Virus record (IMG/VR): IMGVR_UViG_3300036796_000048
Location: 7,335-71,334 of that record
Origin: a virus
Taxonomy: Duplodnaviria; Caudoviricetes
DNA length: 64,000 bases
Strand: one strand, 5' to 3'
A model generated the notes under the pieces. It was not told the DNA's origin and did no database searches. It saw only the letters and a list, made by a program, of their open reading frames with translations. Numbering within the stretch: the stretch's first letter is position 1; every line of letters starts with the position of its first letter. Shown one piece after another: positions 3,459-64,000 of this stretch. Made by a program: the position numbers and the translations under genes.

Positions 3459-3963
3459 TTATGGCGACACTACTGCCGGCACAGGAGCGCCTTGGTATGC
3501 GCAGTCGCAAACAACCAATATGGGTGGGCCAGAATTAGTTGGGGGACCGCTTAAAGATGAAGAAGACCACAACTTGGCCAAAATGATACGCGCAACAGCA
3601 TTAGCACATACAGAGTTACCTACTTTGTTTGTTATCAATGAGAGGGATAACAAAATTATTTACGAGTTTATAAATATACCGCACGAAGAAGCATACAAAA
3701 TAATTGTACTAGCACTACCTAAAGTGTTGAATCTGTGGCTTGAGAAAACCGCCGACTATGGCGACGACCACGCATTAGATCTGGGGCCCAAAGGCGAGTT
3801 TGTACGCATCTGGAACAAAGTACATAAGCTAAAGCGTGCTTTGTGGGATGGTAGACATATGGCCGGCGAGCAGACAGATGAGATACTATCTGACTTAATT
3901 GGCCATAGCTTACGCATATTGGGTCGCATTTGGGGTAGCCCTAAAGGGACTGAAGGCGTATAA
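3445..3963 (+). CDS. Nucleotide-modification-associated domain 1 (Nmad1/DUF1599)-like helical protein
   Basis: EKTADYG...RIWNKVHKLK...EILSDLIGHS matches the K-x-x-DYG / R-x-x-x-K / DLxG pattern of this family. GGAGGG RBS supports the ATG at 3445. Confidence 0.55.
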   Translation: MGCDDYGDTTAGTGAPWYAQSQTTNMGGPELVGGPLKDEEDHNLAKMIRATALAHTELPTLFVINERDNKIIYEFINIPHEEAYKIIVLALPKVLNLWLEKTADYGDDHALDLGPKGEFVRIWNKVHKLKRALWDGRHMAGEQTDEILSDLIGHSLRILGRIWGSPKGTEGV

Positions 3964-5051: not shown

Positions 5052-7368
5052 TGACATCGTAACTAGAGTTGCGAAATTAACTGGAGCCTATACGACCGGA
5101 TCAGAGCAGGTCAAACTGGCTCAAGCGAGCCCAGAGGCTATAGAACTACTGCGTAGATGGCTGAACTATGGCTGGGAGTTCCGCGTAAAGCGTACTCGCA
5201 ACACCAACTTGAAGAAAAACCGCCAGGAATATGTGAAGAGGGTTGAAAATGAACTTGGGCTCATTATTGGAAAAGGGTTCGTTGATTATTTTCTCGTCAC
5301 ATCCGATATCGTCAGGTGGGCTAAAGACAACAAGATTCCTGTTGGCCCGGCACGTGGATCTGCTGCCGCTTCCGTCGTGTGCTACCTATTGCGAATCACA
5401 GAGGTTGATCCTGTACAACACCCCAACATGCTATTTGAGCGTTTCATCGACCCAACACGGGAAGAATTGCCCGACATTGATCTCGACTTTGATGATGAAA
5501 GGCGTCACGAAGTATTCCAGTACGCTGCTGAAAAGTATGGGGCCGAGTGTGTCGGTCACATCGGAAACTTTACCAGGTATCGTGGTAAAAATAGCTTGGA
5601 TGATGTGGCGCGAGTTTACCAAATCCCTAAGTGGGAAGTCGAAACTGTCAAAGGTCTAATCATTGAAAGGAGTGGTGGTGACTCACGACTATCAGACTCG
5701 CTCGAAGACACTTTTGCTACCTTTGCTAAAGCACAAGATGTCTTGGACCGTCATCCGAACCTCGCCAACGCTATCCGGTTGGAGGGCAATTACCGTGGAA
5801 TGGGGGTTCATGCGGCAGGACTCGTTATTTCCAACGCTCCGATTAACAATTTTTGTGCAACGTACACACGAGAGGTTGCGGGTCAATCTACGAGTGTTGT
5901 TGCCTATGACAAAAAAGATGCCGCCTACTTAGGATTCTTAAAGCAAGATATTCTGGGTCTTGCTACCATGGGCATGATTGGCCACGCGCTACGCATAATC
6001 GACATGGACTTGGAGGACTTATATCGTGTCCCAATTACAGACGCAGCAACGTTGCGTGCATTTCGACAAAACGATGTTATCGGAATATTCCAATTTGAAG
6101 GACGTGCAACCAGGCTGGTATGTCGTGACGTTGAGCCTGATCACTTCCAACATCTCGCCGACATCAATGCCCTTAGTAGACCTGGACCACTATTCAGCGG
6201 AATGGCTGCTGCGTATGTTGATGTCAAACACGGTCGCAAAAGGATTGAACATTACCACCCGATCGTGGATCAATACGCTTCTTGGACGTATGGGCAGATT
6301 GTTTACCAGGAGCAGGTTCTAAGGATTATCCGCGACCTTGGCGGGTTTCCCATGACCAAGATTCACGCGATTCGCCAGATCATTTCTCAAAAGTTGGGCG
6401 AAGCTCAGTTTGATGAGATGTACAAAGAGTTTGAGGAAAATGCATGTGGTCAACACGGTTGTACACCGGCACAGGCTCGCCGGATTTGGAGGTTCATGGC
6501 TACATCGGCTACATACAGTTTCAACATAGCCCATTGTATCTCTTACAGTTTGCTCGCTTTCTGGCAAATGTGGTTGAAAGTACACCACCCAGCTGCATTT
6601 TACGCAGCCCAACTTCGCAAAACCCCTGATGATGTTAGACGCAATCGACTTCTCAAGGATGCTGGCAGACACGGAATTGAAGTGGTATCACCTGACATCA
6701 TCGAAAGTGACATCACTTGGACTAAATCCGACGACCGTACTGTGTGTGCTGGTTTTCTTCAAATCCCAGGTATCGGGCCGAAAACTGCCAAAGCTATTGT
6801 GGATTACCTGGACAAAACCGTATGGGAGACCAGTCCTGATTGGGATGACCTCATTAATGTGCCGCGAATAGGCGAAGCAACACTAAACAAAATTAAATCG
6901 TTTGCGCTGGATCCAGACCCGTTCAATTTGAATTACATACGCAGTGTAATGACAGACTTGCGAAAAGAATTAAGCCCTGGCAATAAGCATTATCTGCCCA
7001 CGCCAACACATACATCAGATACACTACCAAGAGATGGGCAACATGAAGTCGTATGGTGCGGTATCCCGATGGTTCGTGAATACAAGGATCTGATTGAAGA
7101 TGAGCGAGCCAGAAGCGGTAGAGAAGTCGCAGAAATCCTTGAGAGCACGCGTGATCCTCATTTGCTTAAGTCTTGTGTGCTTAAATGTATTGACGACGGT
7201 GATGACGAGGTATATGTCAGATTCAATCGTTGGTGTTTCCCAGATTTTGCAGACCGTATTGAGTCACTACGTCTTGGTGGGGCTGATGCGATTATCATTA
7301 AAGGAATCAAGAGAGAAGGGTTTGGAGTGAGCATTCAAGTTCGAGATCTGTGGGCAGTTGAATTATGA
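5044..7368 (+). CDS. dnaE: DNA polymerase III alpha, catalytic part (split gene, part 2)
   Basis: GPARGSAAAS, ELPDIDLDF, GVHAAG, KQDILGL, IVYQEQV, YSFNIAH, HhH (IPGIGPKTA) and a C-terminal OB-like segment. Confidence 0.96.
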   Translation: MSDDIVTRVAKLTGAYTTGSEQVKLAQASPEAIELLRRWLNYGWEFRVKRTRNTNLKKNRQEYVKRVENELGLIIGKGFVDYFLVTSDIVRWAKDNKIPVGPARGSAAASVVCYLLRITEVDPVQHPNMLFERFIDPTREELPDIDLDFDDERRHEVFQYAAEKYGAECVGHIGNFTRYRGKNSLDDVARVYQIPKWEVETVKGLIIERSGGDSRLSDSLEDTFATFAKAQDVLDRHPNLANAIRLEGNYRGMGVHAAGLVISNAPINNFCATYTREVAGQSTSVVAYDKKDAAYLGFLKQDILGLATMGMIGHALRIIDMDLEDLYRVPITDAATLRAFRQNDVIGIFQFEGRATRLVCRDVEPDHFQHLADINALSRPGPLFSGMAAAYVDVKHGRKRIEHYHPIVDQYASWTYGQIVYQEQVLRIIRDLGGFPMTKIHAIRQIISQKLGEAQFDEMYKEFEENACGQHGCTPAQARRIWRFMATSATYSFNIAHCISYSLLAFWQMWLKVHHPAAFYAAQLRKTPDDVRRNRLLKDAGRHGIEVVSPDIIESDITWTKSDDRTVCAGFLQIPGIGPKTAKAIVDYLDKTVWETSPDWDDLINVPRIGEATLNKIKSFALDPDPFNLNYIRSVMTDLRKELSPGNKHYLPTPTHTSDTLPRDGQHEVVWCGIPMVREYKDLIEDERARSGREVAEILESTRDPHLLKSCVLKCIDDGDDEVYVRFNRWCFPDFADRIESLRLGGADAIIIKGIKREGFGVSIQVRDLWAVEL

Positions 7369-7631: not shown

Positions 7632-8500
7632 TGGACGACAAGTACGCATTTAGCAGGACGAAAGACTGTCATGACAATAACATTCTTCTTCGTGATGCTG
7701 CTTTCAATAAACACACCACCAATGACGGCCATCATGTTAGCCCTTACGACCAAGCTCATATCGATGTTGGTTTTGATGATATTACCGTTAAATTGGTCCA
7801 AGGCATCGATGAAGAATCATTCAAGAGAACGCTATCAAAAGCACAACGCGCAACAATTGGAATACCTGCCGACGACGATGGAGACATCGGTGACTGGGAA
7901 GAGATGATGAAGGGTGGCTTACAAACTGCGCTCGAAAGTCAAACTATTATATTTGAAGTCATTGGTTTATCTCGTGCGACGACACATCAACTCGTTAGGT
8001 CCAGACGTGCGGCTTTCCATCAGCAGTCGATGCGAGCAAGTTACATGGGGGATAGGCCCAATTACCGCCTCCCAGAGTCCGTTTTTCGCTCCATTCGGGC
8101 CAGGGAGGCTTTCAGTAAAGCTATAGAAGCTGCTCATGATGCTTACAGAATCGCTTGTGAAGAAGAAGTGAGCTACCAAGATGCCAGATATATCTTACCA
8201 ATTGGTACGGAAACATATATCATGTGCGAATATCCAGTTAGGGAGTTTCTTGCAGTTTATGCCTATAGAGCATGTTCCATGTTCCAATGGGAAATCTGCC
8301 ATATTATACGTGAAATGGGACGAGTGCTCACAGAAGCACACCCTTGGATAAAGCCGTATGTGAAGATCAGCTGTGAGTCTATGAAAAAGTGTACATTTCA
8401 AGGATGGGAAGACGTCGAGCAGGGTTGCGACTTCCCATGGGCGAATTGGGAGGATCGCATTTACAAACCTGAAGCGCATAGAATTAGGACAAACAAATGA
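7631..8500 (+). CDS. thyX: ThyX-family flavin-dependent thymidylate synthase (divergent)
   Basis: SRATTHQLVRSR-X7-SMR (RHR-X7-SXR variant), YQDARYILP and QWEI motifs. Confidence 0.85.
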   Translation: MDDKYAFSRTKDCHDNNILLRDAAFNKHTTNDGHHVSPYDQAHIDVGFDDITVKLVQGIDEESFKRTLSKAQRATIGIPADDDGDIGDWEEMMKGGLQTALESQTIIFEVIGLSRATTHQLVRSRRAAFHQQSMRASYMGDRPNYRLPESVFRSIRAREAFSKAIEAAHDAYRIACEEEVSYQDARYILPIGTETYIMCEYPVREFLAVYAYRACSMFQWEICHIIREMGRVLTEAHPWIKPYVKISCESMKKCTFQGWEDVEQGCDFPWANWEDRIYKPEAHRIRTNK

Positions 8501-55388: not shown

Positions 55389-56335
55389 CATCTAGCCTAT
55401 TTGTTGATGTTGTTGCTGACAAATCAGGCTATGTTCGTCGTCCAGCTGGTGTTGTCATAGCCATTGAGGGCACAAGCTATCCTGGGTTTGATCCTGTAAA
55501 TGGCAATAACCCGCCGTCGATGATCCTCAATGATGGTACTGGTTTCTGGTCAGGTTTCGCTAGCGGCATGGTAGGCGGTGTTTGTAATCTTCAGGATGGC
55601 TTGGTAGATAGCTATTTGCTACCATACAAAGCACCTACAGTGCCTATGTGGCCTGGCGTACAAGAAGCACGCGAGAAGACAGTCGCTTTCCTTTTGTGGT
55701 ATGCTCCAGCATACAAAGAGAAGTGGGGTGACTACCCGGCTATATGGGGCGATGGTTATAGCCAAGGCAGTATGGCTTGGGACCAAGTTTGGACACTAGA
55801 CATATTGCCGGCCGATGGCAGGCTACATTTCTTGCTACCGTATGTATGGCGTATATATCAGCAAGGGCATGTATTCAGGTCGCCTGGTATTGCTTGGGGC
55901 AATGCATTAATTGGTCAACCTCAGAGTATCAAAGTGGATGGCGTCGAGTCTGGTGGTATTGGTACTAGCATGGACTTGACACCGGAACAGACAAATTATC
56001 CTGCTCCTGATGGCAAGCCAGTAATTACTTCTTGCGCTTTGTCTGGTGATATATATACATGTTGCCCAACAGGGACTAATCCTTGGACAGCTCCTGCACC
56101 TGAAGCAACGGCAGGTGTTACGTTTGAGAAGATCATTATGCAACCTACATTAGCAGATATCTTATCTGTTATAAAGGTATTGGGCAACCCTTGGGCAAGT
56201 ATTCTTGAAATGTTTAATGCTATGAAGTTTTTTGCTGCTGGCCCAAATGCTCCGCACTACCAGTATTATCCACATATGGTTGGTTGTATAAACGATTGCT
56301 ACCAATCAGCTTTGTCGCTACCACATTTTCCGTAA
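55385..56335 (+). CDS. lysB: Lysin B (mycolylarabinogalactan esterase)
   Basis: GYSQG nucleophile motif, GDIY acid and C-terminal H; position after lysA. Confidence 0.8.
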   Translation: MTSSLFVDVVADKSGYVRRPAGVVIAIEGTSYPGFDPVNGNNPPSMILNDGTGFWSGFASGMVGGVCNLQDGLVDSYLLPYKAPTVPMWPGVQEAREKTVAFLLWYAPAYKEKWGDYPAIWGDGYSQGSMAWDQVWTLDILPADGRLHFLLPYVWRIYQQGHVFRSPGIAWGNALIGQPQSIKVDGVESGGIGTSMDLTPEQTNYPAPDGKPVITSCALSGDIYTCCPTGTNPWTAPAPEATAGVTFEKIIMQPTLADILSVIKVLGNPWASILEMFNAMKFFAAGPNAPHYQYYPHMVGCINDCYQSALSLPHFP

Positions 56336-56346
56336 AGGCCTGAAAT

Positions 56347-56871
56347 ATGCCACCACCTTGGAAAGCACCGCGGCACCTATCGTGGGCCAGCGACACTATG
56401 GTATTCGGGTCTATATTCCTTGTCACTTTGATCATTACAGTAATAGTCAGCTTTTTCTCTGGTCCTGCTGGACCGCCTGCTTATTTGGTTGGGGCTCTGG
56501 GCGCGGCGGGTTCTGCGTTGTTTGGCGCCGCGAGCAGTGATAGAACTAAGCGTGAAATTGAAGTTAGTGCTACAGCAAGTCGCGCTGAATCTAAAGCTAA
56601 CGATGCATTAGATCGTTCTACTACATCGTTCGATGTTGCGTTGCACCAAGTGTTAGAAGTCCAGGAGCGTGAGCTAGCGACTAACAGGGCTTCGCTTCGG
56701 GCAATGCTCGACGCCGTGGAAGTCAAAGAGCTGAACGGGATTCCCGTACTACAGGAAACACATGATCTTATCGGACAGCAACGTTTGCAGATAACAAAAC
56801 TGGTCGAGGACATCGCCAAACGACGCAAACAAATTGAAGGAAATTATTCCGATAAGGATGGTGTAGAGTGA
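56347..56871 (+). CDS. Membrane protein (holin-like; 2 TM + coiled coil)
   Basis: Two hydrophobic helices followed by a coiled coil, in the lysis cassette. Confidence 0.55.
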   Translation: MPPPWKAPRHLSWASDTMVFGSIFLVTLIITVIVSFFSGPAGPPAYLVGALGAAGSALFGAASSDRTKREIEVSATASRAESKANDALDRSTTSFDVALHQVLEVQERELATNRASLRAMLDAVEVKELNGIPVLQETHDLIGQQRLQITKLVEDIAKRRKQIEGNYSDKDGVE

Positions 56872-57437
56872 TGCTATACATCCTGGAAATGATTTATTCT
56901 TTCCCATTCATGTGGGGTGCTGCTACAGGTGCTGTGTTGTGGAAGATATATTGCTATGCCAAGGCTCGTGTACAACACCATGCTGTTGCTCGCATGTCAC
57001 GTGTTTGGATATCAGGTTTGTGTGCAGTTGGTGCACTAGGATATGTGCTACTAGCAACAGCAAGAACGGAACAGCGTACTGTTGAATTAAACACAGCAGT
57101 AACGCGATGCTGGAGTGAGACATATCAACAGACTAAAGCTCAAATTGATATTAATGCTCAAAATGATGGTATTAGTCGTCAGCAGCAAGCATTGCAAAGG
57201 CAATATGATGAGGCCACATCGGATTGGTTGAAAGATTTAGTGGCACCTCCAGGCTTGAGCGATCAACCGACAAATAGCCCAGCCAGACAGGATTACGGTC
57301 TGCGGCGCACTGCTGCTTATCAAGATCAACTTAACGAACTTGGTAAGCAATTTGATGCCTTGGTTGCACAGCGTAAAGCACTAGACGAACAGCGCGCCCA
57401 ACATCCATTACCGGAGGAACGATGCGGAAGAAGCTAA
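56868..57437 (+). CDS. Membrane protein with C-terminal coiled coil
   Basis: Two hydrophobic segments; C-terminal PLPEERC. Confidence 0.6.
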   Translation: MMLYILEMIYSFPFMWGAATGAVLWKIYCYAKARVQHHAVARMSRVWISGLCAVGALGYVLLATARTEQRTVELNTAVTRCWSETYQQTKAQIDINAQNDGISRQQQALQRQYDEATSDWLKDLVAPPGLSDQPTNSPARQDYGLRRTAAYQDQLNELGKQFDALVAQRKALDEQRAQHPLPEERCGRS

Positions 57438-58126
57438 CAGTCCTGGCCATAGCCATATTATGGGCTGTAGCTGCAACCATTTTCGCTCCAACAACACCAC
57501 ATGCCAACGCTGATGTATTCAATTATCCATGTACTTACCCATTTGTGGGGTCAGGCGCTGATGTTAATGTGCTTGCTGATGTTGGCGGTCAATACTGCGA
57601 TGGTCCAACAGAAGTCAACTGGTCGCACTACCACTGTCAAACTATCAACGCAAATGTTAATATCGGCGCACTCGGCTTTGTCTCGGCGGGTGGCTTAAAT
57701 CTTGGTGGTTTCGGGGGCAATGGAATTGGCGGCAAAATCTTCGATTGCCACTACGTATGTCCTGATGGATTTATAGCACCATTTCCTAACCCGCCAGCCA
57801 AGTGGATTCAGCATATGGTGCTGAACCCCAAGGATAATGATTGTGACCAGCATATGGGTGTTCGTGGCCCAAGCAGTACGCCGATGGTAAATGAGTTACC
57901 CGGTAATATGCTGCCTGGTGAAGGTGCACCCCCTGGGGTGCCTGTACCAGTTGAGCCAGGTAGTTTACCGCCTGGTATGAATAATCCACCTGCTTTGCCT
58001 GGGCCGTCTGCTCCAGAAACGCCTAAAGAACCAGCATCTCCGACGCCTGGTGGTCAAGTACCAGGTGGAGAAAATAGCGACATACAATCGCCACTTACTC
58101 CTGGTGGTCCTATACCATTGCCTTAG
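57422..58126 (+). CDS. Secreted Cys-containing, Pro-rich protein (CDGP-like domain)
   Basis: Signal peptide ending ANA-D, YCDGPTE motif, Pro-rich tail. Confidence 0.6.
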   Translation: MRKKLTVLAIAILWAVAATIFAPTTPHANADVFNYPCTYPFVGSGADVNVLADVGGQYCDGPTEVNWSHYHCQTINANVNIGALGFVSAGGLNLGGFGGNGIGGKIFDCHYVCPDGFIAPFPNPPAKWIQHMVLNPKDNDCDQHMGVRGPSSTPMVNELPGNMLPGEGAPPGVPVPVEPGSLPPGMNNPPALPGPSAPETPKEPASPTPGGQVPGGENSDIQSPLTPGGPIPLP

Positions 58127-58350
58127 CGCAAGCCACGTAGTTTTTCCGGTCTGAAGCCGTGCCAGACGTCTTGCCCATGTACCACCATAGGCAGTTGATA
58201 ATTGCCGCTAGCCTCTACAAGCTTGCGGGCCTCTCTGTCCGTGGTAACATCTTTGGTTTCATACGGGATCTGGTGCTCGTCAAGCAGTTTCTTCGTGTAG
58301 GTGCACTGGACACATTCGGGCTTGGTGTAAACAACGACGGTATCGGACAT
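58123..58350 (-). CDS. nrdH: NrdH-like glutaredoxin
   Basis: VVVYTKPECVQCTYTK...LPMVV...WHGFRPEKL. Confidence 0.92.
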   Translation of the reverse strand: MSDTVVVYTKPECVQCTYTKKLLDEHQIPYETKDVTTDREARKLVEASGNYQLPMVVHGQDVWHGFRPEKLRGLR

Positions 58351-59166
58351 TGCAAACTTTCCCACTTTCAACAGATAGTTAGATGTACTAAATTTAAGAA
58401 TCCTCTAAGAGTTTTGGCTACATATGACCTGGTCCTAGCCTCAAGCGTACCCCATACGACCGGCTAGAATCGCCGCCTGGCTGCGAACGGGTGCTGGCCG
58501 GTACTCTCTACCCAGCGACCAGGGGTTTTAAGGTGGTGTTTCGCCAAGCCGAACGGGTCGAACCAGGCTGCGAATATGCTTGTGAATAAGTCAGCAATGT
58601 TCGCCGACCACGACCAGGCCTTTTGACCAGCGCGGATAAGGCCTGGTTGGGGTAATATCGGTATTGGATCGTCCCTGGTCGGGGACGAATCCGGCGACCG
58701 CGCTACGCGTGGTGCGTGAAACTAGCTTGGTGCGCTGTCTAGATTGCTTGGCGCCGTGTCTAAGTCGCGTATCTGCGCTATGCCGAGGGATATGGTACCG
58801 CCGTGAGGTGGAGCCGGATTGCTCGCGAGGTGGGCAAAGTCGTCGGAGTCCCTAAATAGTGGTGTTGTAGCGGATGTGGCGTTTTGCCCCTCCGACCGTG
58901 TTACACGTCTGTTACAGCAATCCCGTTTCCGTAATCTCGCCACTCGGTCTGCCGCCTATTAGGCCATCGCAGCGAACTGGACTTGTCCTGAGGAACGCAC
59001 TAGTGAGGTGAGCAATACCGCTAGATGTGTGTAGGTTGTAGTCAGCGGAAACATAATGGTTGTTGTTGGGCGCGTTTGAAAACGCGGCGGGTTCTGGGCC
59101 TAAACTCCCAGCGCCCTGCGGGTTAGTTAAATGCTAAGCCCAACCCAACAACCAAGAGGGAAGAAA

Positions 59167-59856
59167 ATGACGATGGTAACATCAAAACCAGCTCCAGCCG
59201 GTACGCTGCGATACCTACACGACTTGATCGTGAAAAAGGATCCAGCGAAGATGGCGGAAATGGTTGAAACCATGCCAGAGCCGTGGCAGGCTTTATGGCG
59301 TCGCATACTCAATGGGTTCGCTTACTGCGACAAAAAAGAGTATGGCCCTGAGGCACTTAACGACTTTCTGCTTTCAGACGAGTCACCTGTGTTGGAACAC
59401 TCCGACGCAAGCACTTTCATAGAACAATTGAGAAAGTTACCTTGGCATGACAGCCGTAATGTAAGCAATTACACTCCTGTAACTGAGGAGGGTATGTACC
59501 GCCGCGTTCGTGAGTGTGACGCTACCATTTATAAGGTACAGCGTGCTGTACACGGAAGTTGTAACCTGTACGCCAAGAAATTGGTTGTTACGGGGAGTGC
59601 CGAATATGGCAATGTGAAGGTGACGTTCGTTTATGCGCCTGGTGCCCTGAAGGGCATTTCAGCGGAAGACAAACTTAGCTATGCAGACGCCAAGGCGTTC
59701 GGCGCGTTGTATGGTACATGCTGCCGCTGCGGCAGAACGCTTACTCACGAGCTGTCGATTGCGCTTGGGATCGGCCCAGTTTGCGGTCGCCGTGAATTTG
59801 GCGGCGACTTCGAACAACTGATCGAGAAGGCAAAATTGGAGGTGGCGTCGAAATGA
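59167..59856 (+). CDS. Hypothetical protein with C-terminal DUF6011-like zinc ribbon
   Basis: CCRCGRTLT...SIALGIGPVC. Confidence 0.7.
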   Translation: MTMVTSKPAPAGTLRYLHDLIVKKDPAKMAEMVETMPEPWQALWRRILNGFAYCDKKEYGPEALNDFLLSDESPVLEHSDASTFIEQLRKLPWHDSRNVSNYTPVTEEGMYRRVRECDATIYKVQRAVHGSCNLYAKKLVVTGSAEYGNVKVTFVYAPGALKGISAEDKLSYADAKAFGALYGTCCRCGRTLTHELSIALGIGPVCGRREFGGDFEQLIEKAKLEVASK

Positions 59857-60089
59857 GTGAGCTATCACTAGGCATTCGTTATGCTAACTTCATTGCTAAG
59901 CATGAGGTAAGTAAGTACTGCTTCTTCTGTGAGTCCCGTCTCGACATGGACGGTAGCGGGATGTATAAAGAGGAAGTGGGTGAGTGGTGGTCAAAAACGC
60001 TACAAAATAGCGTTCTGGGCCACCCAGATTGCTTACCAGATTGTGAAGCTGCCTTAACCGGTAACGATCCAGAATGGAGCATGGCCTAA
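59853..60089 (+). CDS. Small zinc-binding protein
   Basis: CFFC...HPDC; ATGA overlap. Confidence 0.6.
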   Translation: MSELSLGIRYANFIAKHEVSKYCFFCESRLDMDGSGMYKEEVGEWWSKTLQNSVLGHPDCLPDCEAALTGNDPEWSMA

Positions 60090-60183
60090 ACTAAAACGCA
60101 CGGCGGATATTGGGGCTACGGTCCCAATATCCTGCGAGCAGTTTAGTTTGCTGTTCAACCCAACAACCAGAGGGAGAATAAAA

Positions 60184-61347
60184 GTGACATCAAGCGAAAA
60201 CATCATGAGTAAAATCATGAAATTGCTTGAGCGAGCTGAACATGAAGGTACGCCGCCAGAAGAGGCAGAATCATGTAGAGCTAAAGCGGATACTTTGATG
60301 GCGCAACACCAGATTGATCGTATGGATCTGAAGCCTGAAGAAAAATCTCGCATTAAGACTGACATTTGGGAAATCAACGTCGGTACCAATGATGAGTTCC
60401 GTTCTACTCTATTGGCCTTACTCGAAACTGTGCTGCGGTATTGTGGTATTCGCATCAATCCTAAGTGGCAATTTGGGAAAGATGCTAACGGAGCCACTGA
60501 TCTTGACCGCCGTCTCTACACGATCGTGGGCTTCCCTGAGGATATAGCTTATGCGGAACGTATTTGGTTCCGAGTCTTCAAAGAGTTTATCGGCAATTTG
60601 AGGCCTCATTGGGAGCTGAAAGACTCTATTGAGGCTAACGCCTACAACCTTTGTAGCGCTGGAATCGAATGGCAACAGATGGTCTTAATGGCCAATGATG
60701 CTGGTGATGAACGCATACCTGTATCCGAGATGGAACCGAGTCCTGATTGGCGCGGCATACGCAAGCCAGTTAAAGGTAACCGACCGCTAATCAAAGGCAT
60801 CAAGATGCTGCGCGACGGATACAAGGCTGAATGCGAACGTCGCGGTGAGTCTTATGACTACACTCGTGGTCGCAAGACGCGTGAGGCTTATCGTACCAGT
60901 TTCGCTCGCAGCTTCAACTCAACTATTAGCCAGCGTTTGCAGGAAATGCGACGCAAAGCTAAAGAGACTGTAAGCGATCAGGACAAGTTCTCTTTGGCCG
61001 TGATTGATACCAAGGAGAAGGTGGATGCAGAGTTTTACCGACTGTTTCCCGAATATGATCCTGAAGTACGCAGGCGTATGCAACAGGCCGCTACGGATGA
61101 GCAAATCGCAGCGTTCCTGGCAATGTCGCCTGAGGAACAAGCTTACGTAATTCGTGAAGTGGAGCGTGATGAGGCACGTTGGCGTAGGGCTAGCAATCGC
61201 AATCGTGTGAGTTATGGTCGAGTGCGTGAGAACCCTTACGACAACGTGGAATCAACGGCGTGGGCGCGTGGTCGTTCTGCGGCTGCTAAAGTCAACCTAC
61301 GCGACGACGGTGAAGTCAAAGACCAAAGTCGCAAGGGTCTGCGATGA
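60184..61347 (+). CDS. DUF2786-domain protein
   Basis: KIMKLLERAE...TPPEEAE...KA..LM..HQID; GTG start after the box and RBS. Confidence 0.75.
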   Translation: MTSSENIMSKIMKLLERAEHEGTPPEEAESCRAKADTLMAQHQIDRMDLKPEEKSRIKTDIWEINVGTNDEFRSTLLALLETVLRYCGIRINPKWQFGKDANGATDLDRRLYTIVGFPEDIAYAERIWFRVFKEFIGNLRPHWELKDSIEANAYNLCSAGIEWQQMVLMANDAGDERIPVSEMEPSPDWRGIRKPVKGNRPLIKGIKMLRDGYKAECERRGESYDYTRGRKTREAYRTSFARSFNSTISQRLQEMRRKAKETVSDQDKFSLAVIDTKEKVDAEFYRLFPEYDPEVRRRMQQAATDEQIAAFLAMSPEEQAYVIREVERDEARWRRASNRNRVSYGRVRENPYDNVESTAWARGRSAAAKVNLRDDGEVKDQSRKGLR

Positions 61348-61543
61348 CGGCATATAGCGTGCCAACGTGGTGGGTAGCCGGTATGGTTGCTGCGGTTAGG
61401 GCATTTTTAAGCCTAATGCTGTCATACTGGCTACTGTGGAACAATTTCCGAGTTCGTATAGCACGGCGGGTGCTCTGTTGGAGGCAGAGCATCCTGCGAG
61501 TTATGCGAAAATGGCATAACCAACCCAACAACCAGGGAGAAAA

Positions 61544-61828
61544 ATGAGAGTGTTGATGAACCACCAGGGTAACCTGGGATATGGTCCAGACCAAATCAAC
61601 AACCCCATTACGCTTAATGATTTGCTAGAACAAATTGAAGAGGCAATTGCGGAATGGGGTGGTGATGCAGAAGTGGTTGCTTATCAAACAAACAACGGTC
61701 ACGGCGCCAATTACGGTTCGATGTATCGTCACGAGTTGTTCGAAGCAGTTGATGGTGCATGTGAAGAATGCACAGGATCTGTCACCTGTGAATGTGATGA
61801 ATGTGTTGAACTCGATGGGAGAGGCTGA
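61544..61828 (+). CDS. Hypothetical protein
   Basis: Box + GGGAG RBS; C-terminal CEEC...CECDEC. Confidence 0.7.
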   Translation: MRVLMNHQGNLGYGPDQINNPITLNDLLEQIEEAIAEWGGDAEVVAYQTNNGHGANYGSMYRHELFEAVDGACEECTGSVTCECDECVELDGRG

Positions 61829-62073
61829 TGGCTACGATTCAGTCCAAAGACTATGGCGAGACTGAGGACAGGCTTACCAAAGACCCGATAGTCATTGCGA
61901 TGGCTGAAGATTTGAAAGGCTTGCCCTTTCATAGTCATGGTTGGTTACACGAAGATGATTCGCCAACCTTCAGCTTCATGCAACTCGTCAATGGCGAGTA
62001 TCGCAAACGTGGTGGACAAGATGGCGGCCATATCGGCGCTATCGCAGTCGCGATTTTGAGGCTGGTGAAGTAG
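61828..62073 (+). CDS. Hypothetical protein
   Basis: TGATG coupling. Confidence 0.6.
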   Translation: MATIQSKDYGETEDRLTKDPIVIAMAEDLKGLPFHSHGWLHEDDSPTFSFMQLVNGEYRKRGGQDGGHIGAIAVAILRLVK

Positions 62074-62348
62074 TGGATGAAATAATCCTTGCTGCGCTCA
62101 TGATGGTCTATATGAAATGGATCATCCTCGCAGGGCTATTTGCCATAAGCGTCCGGTGTTTCGTCCGGTACGCGAAGTGGCAAATCGCTAGGAACGATCT
62201 GAGGGCGGCTGAATGTGAGGCTACGGCCGCACGGGCCGACGAACAGAACGCTTACTACTCAGAAGGTGACCCGATAGGTACGTATGGCGAATATGATGCA
62301 TATACGATGCCTCTCGATGAACCGCGAGAGTGGTACGACTACAAATGA
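62073..62348 (+). CDS. Membrane-anchored hypothetical protein
   Basis: N-terminal hydrophobic helix, then a short coiled coil. Confidence 0.6.
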   Translation: MDEIILAALMMVYMKWIILAGLFAISVRCFVRYAKWQIARNDLRAAECEATAARADEQNAYYSEGDPIGTYGEYDAYTMPLDEPREWYDYK

Positions 62349-62445
62349 AAGGGTGGCCGGTAAATGGCAGCACGGCGGGTTCAAGCCCCGCCACCGGCGC
62401 TATGCGGTAATTGCCGCAGAACCCAACAACCAACAGGGAGTTAAA

Positions 62446-62703
62446 ATGCGAGCAATCGCAGCAATCATCGGGTTATACATCACGATGGTATGCGGTAGCA
62501 TCGTGATTGATGCTGCTACACCATATGCACACGCGCTAGGTCCATGTACCGATGCAAGGTCATCGGCGTGGAACGCTTATGACTGCGCGCGGTCGCCGAG
62601 TAATGACCTTACTTGCGACCCGATACTGAACCACGGTAACTGGCAGCAGTGTAACCAGAACCAATATCAGCGCCAGCAAGGCATTCAAGCACGCCTACCA
62701 TGA
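62446..62703 (+). CDS. Small secreted Cys-containing protein
   Basis: Signal peptide ending AHA; four Cys; box + RBS. Confidence 0.6.
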   Translation: MRAIAAIIGLYITMVCGSIVIDAATPYAHALGPCTDARSSAWNAYDCARSPSNDLTCDPILNHGNWQQCNQNQYQRQQGIQARLP

Positions 62704-62861
62704 ACCAGGTCTATCTGGAGTTGCCTAAAGGGTATATAGTGCCAGTCACGCAAACTGGCCGTACTTCAGGTAACTGTCTATTAGTCATAATGCCCATGGG
62801 TATTGAACAATGGGTACATATTGACCACATTCTGTTCTATGATGAGGTCGAAATGGTCTAG
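62700..62861 (+). CDS. Small hypothetical protein
   Basis: Manual translation MNQVYLELPKGYIVPVTQTG...; ATGA overlap. Confidence 0.5.
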   Translation: MNQVYLELPKGYIVPVTQTGRTSGNCLLVIMPMGIEQWVHIDHILFYDEVEMV

Positions 62862-62993
62862 CCTTAACCAGCCCGGTGGAGTAGAATAGGAGACATGCGG
62901 CGGGTGCTCAGATTCAGCGAATCTGAGCATCCTGCGGATGTTAGCCTATGAGGCGAATATCCAAACCAACAACCAGAGGGAGAACAAAACAAG

Positions 62994-63377
62994 ATGGCGA
63001 GGAATGTAAAGGATCCATCGTATAAGCGCATCCACAGATTACTTCCAGTAATGCGTGGTAAAGCTGCTTTTTACGATTGTGTCGACTGCGGACAACAAGC
63101 TCATGATTGGTCACACAAACATGGATCGGATAGAGACAATCTATTAAATTATGATCCGCGTTGCTGTAGCTGTCACATCAAATACGATTACACGTATGAG
63201 CGTCGTGTTCAGGTTGCTTTGATACAAAGCTCAAAACTGAATGAGGCTGATGTGAAAGCAATCATATTATTGTTAGCCCAAGGCTATAAACAAGCCGTAA
63301 TTGCGCGCATGTTTAGAGTTAGTAGGCCATTAATTTCTGACATTTACAGCTACAAGAAGTGGGGACACGTAGCATGA
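62994..63377 (+). CDS. HNH endonuclease-like protein with C-terminal HTH
   Basis: H...RGKA..YDCVDCG..A.DWSH...CCSCHIKYD plus LNEADVKAI...IARMFRVSRPLIS. Confidence 0.75.
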   Translation: MARNVKDPSYKRIHRLLPVMRGKAAFYDCVDCGQQAHDWSHKHGSDRDNLLNYDPRCCSCHIKYDYTYERRVQVALIQSSKLNEADVKAIILLLAQGYKQAVIARMFRVSRPLISDIYSYKKWGHVA

Positions 63378-64000
63378 GCAAGAATGTTGTCAATCCAAGC
63401 GGTTACCATTCATCTGGCCGTACTTTGCAAGAGAAAGCTACCAATTTCGGTTTGTATGTCAAGCAATTTGGTTGGAAGGGCAACTTTACAACCGATGCTG
63501 ATGGCAACGTCGATCTGGTAGCTACTCGCGGCGAAAATGAGCAAATTACTATAACCTGGTATGCAGGTGGCGGTGGTTTGGTCACTTACATCTTGGCCGG
63601 TGACAGCATTAAGTGTAACAACGTAAGTGCTGCGGCTAAAATTGCTAAAGAAAAGCCAGATCCGAGTAGGTTCCGACGCGCAGTTCGTAAGCGTAAGGTC
63701 GATGAAGATTACACTCCTGAAATGCTGGAAGACCTTCAAGGTACACTTCCGTTTGATCACGACTCAACTGATGATGAGATTAGAGCCGCGTTACTTGGTA
63801 AAACAATTACGTGGATCAATCGTTTTTCTGGTCAAGTTGAAACCGCTGACGTCAGCCCAAAGCCGAACCACTTTAGTGTGTGTCGGAATGGCAATGATTA
63901 TATCAATTTCGTGTATCCGATACCTGCGCGTGTTATGTCACGTTGGGGCAAGGAACACATGGAGTCTGATACATACGGTTTCAGACTCCATGTGTTCCTT
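63374..64000 (+). CDS. Hypothetical protein (3'-truncated by window edge)
   Basis: Manual translation MSKNVVNPSGYHSS... is open to the end of the window; ATGA overlap. Confidence 0.6.
   Translation, partial: MSKNVVNPSGYHSSGRTLQEKATNFGLYVKQFGWKGNFTTDADGNVDLVATRGENEQITITWYAGGGGLVTYILAGDSIKCNNVSAAAKIAKEKPDPSRFRRAVRKRKVDEDYTPEMLEDLQGTLPFDHDSTDDEIRAALLGKTITWINRFSGQVETADVSPKPNHFSVCRNGNDYINFVYPIPARVMSRWGKEHMESDTYGFRLHVFL

Follow-up and report, generated by a model that had tools for sequence, protein, structure and literature searches.

Hairpin and leader units in the early region

The 64,000-nucleotide stretch of DNA analyzed here (the window) covers bases 7335 to 71334 of a single 71,334-bp viral contig from a soil metagenome, IMGVR_UViG_3300036796_000048, which is rated 100% complete, and holds most of the phage genome. 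We focus on a repeated RNA hairpin that, together with a CA-rich leader, precedes genes between 59 and 64 kb of the window. Sequencing runs listed for this phage comprise two of soil DNA and none of RNA. The + strand carries nearly all genes of this genome. By large terminase and DUF2786 protein, the nearest phages are the Mycobacterium phages Onyinye, Aikoy, and Leopard (67% and 47% amino acid identity, respectively), followed by Cluster D phages, and, judged by these similarities, the source is an Onyinye-like actinophage from soil. In Onyinye, the virion and lysis genes are followed by one reverse glutaredoxin gene, a gene-free gap of approximately 0.5 kb, small genes without assigned function, and the replication genes. 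The 59- to 64-kb part of the window matches the first of these small genes and therefore represents the immediate-early region; relative to Onyinye, the contig is circularly permuted.

Four bulged hairpins in front of early-region genes (59083-59120, 60097-60136, 61461-61496, and 62895-62936), with inner stems that differ in sequence and stay paired, had been described in the initial annotation. All four are present at these positions with these stems, and the units lie between + strand immediate-early genes. The copy number of four holds for full hairpins, and a fifth, degenerate unit at 62370-62392 is to be added. The hairpin is half of a composite of approximately 100 nt, the other part of which is a conserved CA-rich leader. 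In 5' to 3' order, this module comprises the stop codon of the upstream gene, an irregular hairpin (21 to 36 bp in total), approximately 20 nt, an unstructured CCCAACAACC leader, a Shine-Dalgarno sequence, and the start codon of the gene that opens a block. Each full hairpin is located 20 to 26 nt upstream of an exact CCAACAACC, which is followed by a purine-rich Shine-Dalgarno sequence and a start codon, the leader taking the form (A)ACCCAACAACC. On the + strand of the window, this 9-mer is found five times, in the same setting each time. The match to the hairpin model begins 2 to 12 nt after the upstream stop codon in most units across the loci studied. Genes that lack a unit overlap the preceding stop codon, so that one to three translationally coupled genes form the block behind each unit. 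The features are listed below with scores from covariance model R1, built from copies of four phages for the hairpin type of the window (type B); model R2 represents a second type (type A).

59058-59069, + strand: anti-leader GGTTGTTGTTGG, complement of the CCAACAAC leader, directly 5' of the first hairpin
59081-59124, + strand: unit 1 core hairpin, type B, with G.G mismatch, CG/CG, 2x2 loop, GGG/CCC, and CUGGG/CCCAG stem; R1 54.7 bits, E 6e-9
59145-59169, + strand: unit 1 leader (CCAACAACC), Shine-Dalgarno sequence, and ATG (59167) of the DUF6011 gene
60087-60150, + strand: unit 2 extended hairpin, core 60097-60140, A.A mismatch, UACG tetraloop; R1 52.7 bits; fold z score -5.4
60160-60186, + strand: unit 2 leader, Shine-Dalgarno sequence, and GTG (60184) of the DUF2786 gene
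61453-61509, + strand: unit 3 extended hairpin, core 61460-61502, A.A mismatch; R1 50.1 bits; fold z score -4.3
61525-61546, + strand: unit 3 leader, Shine-Dalgarno sequence, and ATG (61544)
62370-62392, + strand: unit 4 degenerate hairpin, apical stem and 3' box lost, 6-bp GGCGGG/CCCGCC left; fold z score -0.9; no R1 match
62423-62448, + strand: unit 4 leader, Shine-Dalgarno sequence, and ATG (62446); exact leader kept after the degenerate hairpin
62886-62950, + strand: unit 5 extended hairpin, core 62894-62940, G.G mismatch, 14-bp apical stem; R1 50.3 bits; fold z score -4.0
62966-62996, + strand: unit 5 leader, Shine-Dalgarno sequence, and ATG (62994) of the HNH/HTH-like gene

The RNA fold z scores of the four full hairpins were -4.0 to -5.4 on the + strand and -1.7 to -3.9 on the - strand. 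Consistent with the earlier remark that the hairpins lack U-tails and are not simple terminators, no U-runs follow them and no terminator-like site was detected at any unit; a sigma-70-type promoter pair (-35/-10) was likewise absent from all units. The outer stem of unit 2, CUAAACUAAA/UUUAGUUUAG, takes in the upstream stop codon. In unit 4, the 5' box GCACGGCGGGT (62370-62380) is exact and intact. Unit 3 sits within the 3' part of an open reading frame (ORF) at 61344-61547. This ORF of 67 codons starts at the stop codon of the DUF2786 gene, encodes one hydrophobic helix, runs through the hairpin and leader of unit 3, and ends at the ATGA of the next gene; its equivalents in Onyinye and in the related loci L007 and L009 comprise 34 to 42 codons and end just 5' of the hairpin.

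A two-subtype RNA family in related phages

The DUF2786 protein has 94 metagenomic relatives. Loci around several of these, referred to by their L numbers, were fetched and examined together with Onyinye and the IMG/VR contig L084. The hairpin element was found in 10 related phage lineages, and the composite was present in each of the following loci (amino acid identity of the DUF2786 protein to that of the source phage in parentheses):

L006 (89%)
L007 / L008 (65%)
L222 (64%)
L009 (55%)
L230 (48%)
L232 (38%)
L084 (IMG/VR contig)

The copies fall into two subtypes. Type B, the type of the window, has the base motif R-CG-GC-GG ... CC-UG-CG-R, and type A, found in Onyinye and others, has U-G-C-NN-R-GUG ... 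YAU-Y-NN-G-G-G; both occur together in L007, L009, L084, L222, and L232. The proposal that the hairpins form a structured RNA family, made from covariation among the copies of one genome, is borne out within this genome and independently across the 10 lineages. We aligned 11 type-B and 11 type-A copies with MAFFT, using hand-written structures, and compared them with 500 column shuffles:

Standard-paired cells: type B, 96.4%; type A, 99.5%
Pairs changed on both sides: type B, 11/15; type A, 12/17
Covariation score: type B, 0.66; type A, 0.81 (column shuffles, 0.22 and 0.21)
Shuffles scoring as high as observed: type B, 0/500; type A, 0/500

Sliding the pairing partners by 1 to 3 columns lowered pairing to 27 to 56%. 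An enlarged, model-aligned set of 38 copies (16 type B and 22 type A) had 97 to 99% of the cells paired and double compensatory changes in 11/15 and 14/17 pairs, a level that no shuffle attained. No sequence is common to the apical stems of different copies, so that in effect each copy is a sample independent of the others. Compensation is also visible between close copies: an A-U pair of unit 2 is G.U in its L006 ortholog, unit 3 is distinguished from its closest copy (L006 2664-2706) by two adjacent pairs, both compensated, and L007 5913 and L222 5918 differ by C-G to U-A. The ortholog of unit 1 is located at L006 1471-1514.

The (CG)GC bulge of the initial annotation, drawn with GCA/UGC pairing, had to be revised. 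It is better drawn as a 1x1 purine.purine mismatch, C-G, G-C, and a 2x2 loop with GC opposite UG, because three positions outside covary with the three that follow CCUGCGR (C-G in 9 and U-A in 7 copies), a relationship that fails under the GCA/UGC pairing. From the outside inward, the type-B base thus consists of a short outer helix, the 1x1 mismatch, C-G and G-C, the 2x2 loop, GG/CC, and the variable stem. The 2x2 loop is conserved, with GC opposite UG in 14 copies and GU opposite CA in 2. At the 1x1 mismatch, 12 type-B copies have G.G and 4 have A.A, and the mixed forms G.A and A.G never occur, which looks like covariation of a noncanonical pair. Type A has a 1x1 internal loop only, G.G in all 22 copies. 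Variable outer stems beyond the model extend the helix to its total length. Base motifs were kept between phages whose DUF2786 proteins are only 38 to 65% identical. The hairpin base is constant in sequence, including its noncanonical pairs, and the apical stem can change provided that pairing is kept, which argues for the base as the recognition site. A type-A copy in L010 (1280-1361) carries a 14-nt loop and an extra apical branch of approximately 40 nt on an intact base, so the apex can accommodate large insertions. The 5' flank of many type-A units, (GC)AAC-GARA-GUU(GC), can form a small GNRA-capped hairpin of its own in place of the outer stem AACG/CGUU, so that two exclusive conformations are possible. 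This flank was observed at the following sites:

L001 4040-4060
L009 925-940
L007 5895-5915
L084 contig, around 35320

The hairpin is almost certainly a selected structure of the sense-strand RNA. Among paired cells, 96 are G.U or U.G and 4 are A.C or C.A, and the complementary strand would therefore carry 96 mismatches. Three wobbles of type A are nearly invariant (U.G in 21/22, G.U in 19/22, and G.U in 20/22 copies), and such a fixed difference between the arms is not expected of a duplex-DNA site for a symmetric protein. The conserved arms are 14 to 40 variable bases apart, and approximately 60 in one copy. Terminal loops range from 3 to 14 nt without a common sequence; 20 of the 38 are tetraloops, and 15 of these 20 are UNCG (11) or GNRA (4), compared to approximately 5% expected by chance.

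Both models were specific. In the window and in the whole 71,334-bp genome, searched on both strands, R1 matched exactly the four full hairpins (E 6e-9 to 6e-8), all on the + strand, and R2 found five copies in Onyinye, all on the + strand at 40.0 to 45.3 kb in the early region. Together, R1 and R2 recovered nonseed copies in L084, L222, L010, L230, and L232. R1 had no match in 0.63 Mb of unrelated viral contigs, and neither R1 nor R2 matched in 1.33 Mb of unrelated viral contigs preselected by a loose sequence pattern. Loose composite DNA patterns marked approximately 200 loci in IMG/VR, of which L084 was the sole real one; none of the 158 other loci scanned matched either model. Comparison of the element with Rfam and related phages, as the initial annotation had proposed, yielded copies in the related phages and no relevant match to the 4227 models of Rfam release 15 at E <= 1 in window positions 56000-64000, L001, L009, and L084. 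The sole Rfam hit, mir-3170 at 63949-64000, is an artifact of an assembly fold-back at the contig end. We found no paper describing the motif in Onyinye. The hairpin element is thus a genuine, uncatalogued RNA motif family with two subtypes and part of a composite early-gene expression module.

The leader and Shine-Dalgarno sequence are predicted to be unusually open. In Onyinye, the predicted mean unpaired probability of positions -30 to +3 was 0.64 for 7 unit-headed genes and 0.44 for the other 97 (Mann-Whitney p = 3e-5); in the source genome, with heuristic gene starts, it was 0.61 for unit-headed genes versus 0.44 (p = 0.001). The first unit of Onyinye is an exception to the open leaders. 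In the predicted minimum-free-energy fold, the anti-leader forms a helix with the unit 1 leader, enclosing the first hairpin. Its exact 12-mer occurs once per genome and at the same place in the source phage, Onyinye, the L084 contig, L006, L007, and L232.

Comparison of the window with L006, approximately 85% identical in nucleotide sequence in shared genes, revealed homology blocks that begin and end at units. Between unit 1 and the DUF6011 gene, L006 carries two additional genes, both headed by a unit of their own; the 94-codon gene found after unit 3 in the source phage is located elsewhere in L006, without a unit there; and the L006 hairpin most similar to unit 3 precedes the DUF6011 gene. 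Since the homology breaks coincide with units, these are also recombination joints. Cassettes of T4-type phages marked by promoter early stem-loop (PeSL) elements likewise mark joints of cassette shuffling (PMC2839356, PMC4122927).

Several observations concern the surroundings of the units and the distribution of relatives. Between the reverse-strand glutaredoxin-like gene (58123-58371) and unit 1, a gene-free stretch of 685 nt (58372-59056; fold z score only -2.1) presumably holds the early promoter or promoters; a block inside it, 58611-58672, is 81% identical to L006. At the contig end, the last 15 bases (63986-64000) are the reverse complement of the preceding sequence, forming the perfect 20-bp hairpin of the fold-back. 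Approximately 126 bp before it (63859-63985) repeat the first bases of the contig, which then diverge, and this makes the contig either circularly closed or terminally redundant. When the region was compared by megablast with 50,697 phage records, no close DNA relative was identified, and blastn against the phage collection returned only a 124-bp coding match to the Onyinye group; scans of IMG/VR with the DUF2786 protein and with the exact leader gave no match. L222 (CAZPLH010000003.1) is a 31-kb contig filed in a 'Candidatus Saccharibacteria' metagenome-assembled genome and contains a phage early region in which the element is present five times. Nothing else was returned by a scan of genome contigs for the motif, and L222 most likely represents a misbinned phage contig or a phage of the epibiont's actinobacterial partner. 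The hairpin element is absent from the Cluster D phages PBI1 and Hawkeye. A different repeat of promoter-like appearance precedes Cluster D early genes, (TAGCGCGA)ATCGGGYCG, 6 to 7 nt, and GTAACGTTC, with a TANNNT-type hexamer, and a similar copy is located upstream of the L007 early region at approximately 3600-3640. The Cluster D repeats are as follows:

L002 (PBI1): 5300-5375, 8040-8112, 8351-8409
L003 (Hawkeye): 5610-5700, 8066-8133

Candidate functions of the module

By analogy to phage T7, we tentatively favor, with somewhat less than even confidence, an mRNA processing or stabilizing signal coupled to an open ribosome-landing leader. The hairpins would form as sense-strand structures within the immediate-early polycistronic mRNA, and an endonuclease specific for double strands, probably RNase III of the host or an enzyme like it, would cut in or beside their conserved irregular core. 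The early message would thereby be split into segments capped by a very stable, exonuclease-blocking hairpin, and the open CA-rich leader might serve as a ribosome landing pad, allowing each gene block to be translated independently. The helix of anti-leader and first leader is predicted to tuck in the head of the early region, where the early transcript presumably has its 5' end. We rank a processing signal first because the core lies approximately 14 to 18 bp below the loop, the helix spans at least two turns, the position is intercistronic and early, and a U-tail is lacking. An ideal RNase III substrate has approximately 22 bp, and internal loops direct single-strand cuts that leave stabilizing 3' hairpins (PMC3867540). 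The total helix of 21 to 36 bp meets this length. Helix length and the conserved irregular core fit an RNase III-type site or a regulator site better than a nut/boxB site, the other option raised initially.

Several points weigh against processing by a nuclease of this kind. No fixed sequence is known to be required by bacterial RNase III, and the strongly sequence-constrained core suits a specific binding protein at least as well. The coexistence of two base motifs in single genomes is not explained by a single generic nuclease. Unit 3 lies inside an ORF, and unit 4 has mostly lost its hairpin yet kept its leader, which implies that the hairpin is not indispensable for every gene. Finally, with stabilities of -20 to -39 kcal/mol, the cores could also act as a passive barrier to exonucleases that involves no cleavage.

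The constrained core gives some room to another possibility, which we consider rather doubtful, namely, that the hairpin is an operator at which a sequence-specific RNA-binding protein of phage or host recognizes the mismatch core and controls translation from the leader or acts in nut/boxB- or put-like antitermination. The sequence-conserved base, the isosteric G.G/A.A covariation, and the invariant wobbles would be expected of such a site, and widened-groove motifs are typically sites for arginine-rich peptides. The roughly fixed distance of 11 to 31 nt between hairpin and leader is consistent with it as well, and two subtypes could mean two factors. However, the subtypes are interchangeable before gene families, the DUF2786 gene being preceded by type B in the source phage and L006 and by type A in L007, L009, and Onyinye. 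Among ten early proteins searched with Pfam and PHROGs, only DUF6011, DUF2786, and the HNH/HTH protein were recognized and no RNA-binding domain was found; a tblastn comparison of presence and absence (source genome, Onyinye, and G001 versus PBI1) gave a noisy list without an RNA-binding or nuclease candidate. Antitermination in particular is disfavored, as 5 to 9 copies per operon are needless for a processive mechanism, a boxA-like partner is lacking, and the loops, which are the part read by N-type proteins, are not conserved. High stability, UNCG and GNRA caps, and open adjacent leaders would also be in line with a passive hairpin that insulates the ribosome-binding region from upstream sequence and blocks 3'-5' or 5'-3' exonucleases and trailing ribosomes without a specific factor, having been spread and kept similar by recombination in the manner of PeSL elements. 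That homology to L006 breaks exactly at units, with cassettes gained or moved, agrees with PeSL-mediated shuffling (PMC2839356, PMC4122927). We nevertheless judge a purely passive role to be distinctly unlikely, because it does not explain an invariant base with mismatches and wobbles next to apical stems that share no sequence, nor the persistence of this base across 38 to 65% protein identity, and gene conversion would homogenize the entire hairpin.

A signal at the DNA level, such as an ESAS-like promoter or operator (ESAS, extended start-associated sequence), a stoperator-like repressor site, an N4 hairpin promoter, or an attC-like recombination site, appears highly improbable. The module is intergenic, has one orientation, heads genes, and marks mosaic junctions, which would suit such a signal, and ESAS have been reinterpreted as promoters in Adephagia (PMC11373665). 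Against this, units carry no -35/-10 pair, the spacing of the boxes is too variable for a duplex-DNA site, the G.U pairs of the arms exist on the sense strand only and leave C.A mismatches on the template strand, RNA-specific tetraloops are enriched, and the Onyinye annotation lists no integrase. We rejected a duplex-DNA operator because the spacing varies and the arms are asymmetric. An N4-type hairpin promoter was rejected for the C.A mismatches that the template strand would carry and for the widely varying sizes of stem and loop, and promoter and terminator readings for the absence of sigma-70-type promoters and U-tail terminators from the units.

A more far-reaching and, in our estimation, unlikely reading is that the module is a 'punctuation' system, not described before, for the immediate-early mRNA of actinophages. 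A dedicated factor, either a phage protein or a host enzyme, would read the homopurine-mismatch core in two dialects, A and B, and the single anti-leader GGUUGUUGUUGG, found in six lineages, might switch all CCAACAACC leaders in cis and possibly in trans.

Comparison with known phage signals

The RNase III signals of T7 early mRNA (R0.3 to R1.3) are likewise repeated intercistronic hairpins in the earliest polycistronic message, located before ribosome-binding sites. They share with the element described here an irregular helix of approximately two turns, a conserved internal-loop region, a variable distal stem, and the absence of U-tails. As in T7, all copies lie in an early polycistronic region, between + strand early genes, and the helix of 21 to 36 bp with its internal loop matches the T7-type irregular helix of approximately 20 bp or more. 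Analogous sites are present in the early mRNA of Bacillus phage SP82. The element differs from the T7 signals in lacking any sequence similarity to them and in its host clade, Actinobacteria, and cleavage is known for T7 but is a prediction here. Its core is also more strictly defined in sequence, with a homopurine mismatch and fixed wobbles, occurs in two subtypes, and is tied to an invariant CA-rich leader. The lambda nut sites and HK022 put RNAs are, like this element, cis-acting RNA hairpins in early phage transcripts. They are present in one or two copies just after promoters, however, and are read via the loop or specific bulges of small hairpins. Compared with lambda nut, the element has 5 to 9 copies, variable loops, and no boxA, and its sole conserved single-stranded part is the downstream leader.

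The nearest published concept in actinophages is that of start-associated sequences, or SAS, and ESAS of Cluster K and Cluster EF phages, in which the ribosome-binding site is merged with a conserved motif that has an inverted repeat upstream (PMC3203893, PMC7302621). The module resembles them in placing a conserved asymmetric motif at the ribosome-binding site of a subset of nonstructural genes with large upstream gaps, in a single orientation and with a second, inverted-repeat element just upstream. The Cluster K SAS has the 13-bp consensus GGGATAGGAGCCC, located 3 to 7 bp before the start codon (PMC3203893), and this consensus is unrelated to the CCAACAACC leader. ESAS arms are imperfect 17-bp inverted repeats of conserved sequence with SigA-like -35/-10 elements, and the current interpretation of ESAS is as SigA promoters combined with an operator-like repeat (PMC11373665). 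In contrast, the stems described here vary and covary and have no promoter-like pair, which sets the module apart from SAS and ESAS alike. For 15 years, start-associated repeats have been described in several clusters of actinophages with no mechanism attached. The covariation, the asymmetry of the wobbles, and the choice of tetraloops indicate that the upstream element of this module acts as RNA and not as a promoter or operator, and the element has a sharply defined recognition core.

In PeSL elements of T4-type phages, a stem-loop and an expression signal flank small early genes without assigned function, and both they and the present units coincide with shuffling breakpoints. PeSL elements combine a sigma-70 early promoter with a terminator-like stem-loop, whereas promoter and U-tail are lacking here and conservation falls on the core of an RNA helix and on a translation leader. 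Integron attC sites also differ from the element, given the G.U asymmetry of the sense strand, the RNA tetraloops, and the lack of an integrase in the Onyinye annotation (an integrase was not searched for in the source genome). As a mark of exchange points of early cassettes, the module bears on how phages acquire host-takeover genes, and in mycobacterial genetics it could be of use as a compact, insulating expression cassette. Because Onyinye, a cultured and tractable phage of M. smegmatis mc2 155, carries five clear copies, cutting, stabilization, and translation of the early message are directly testable. Taken together, these comparisons place the element with the known intercistronic processing or start-associated signals of phages, as a previously uncatalogued variant.

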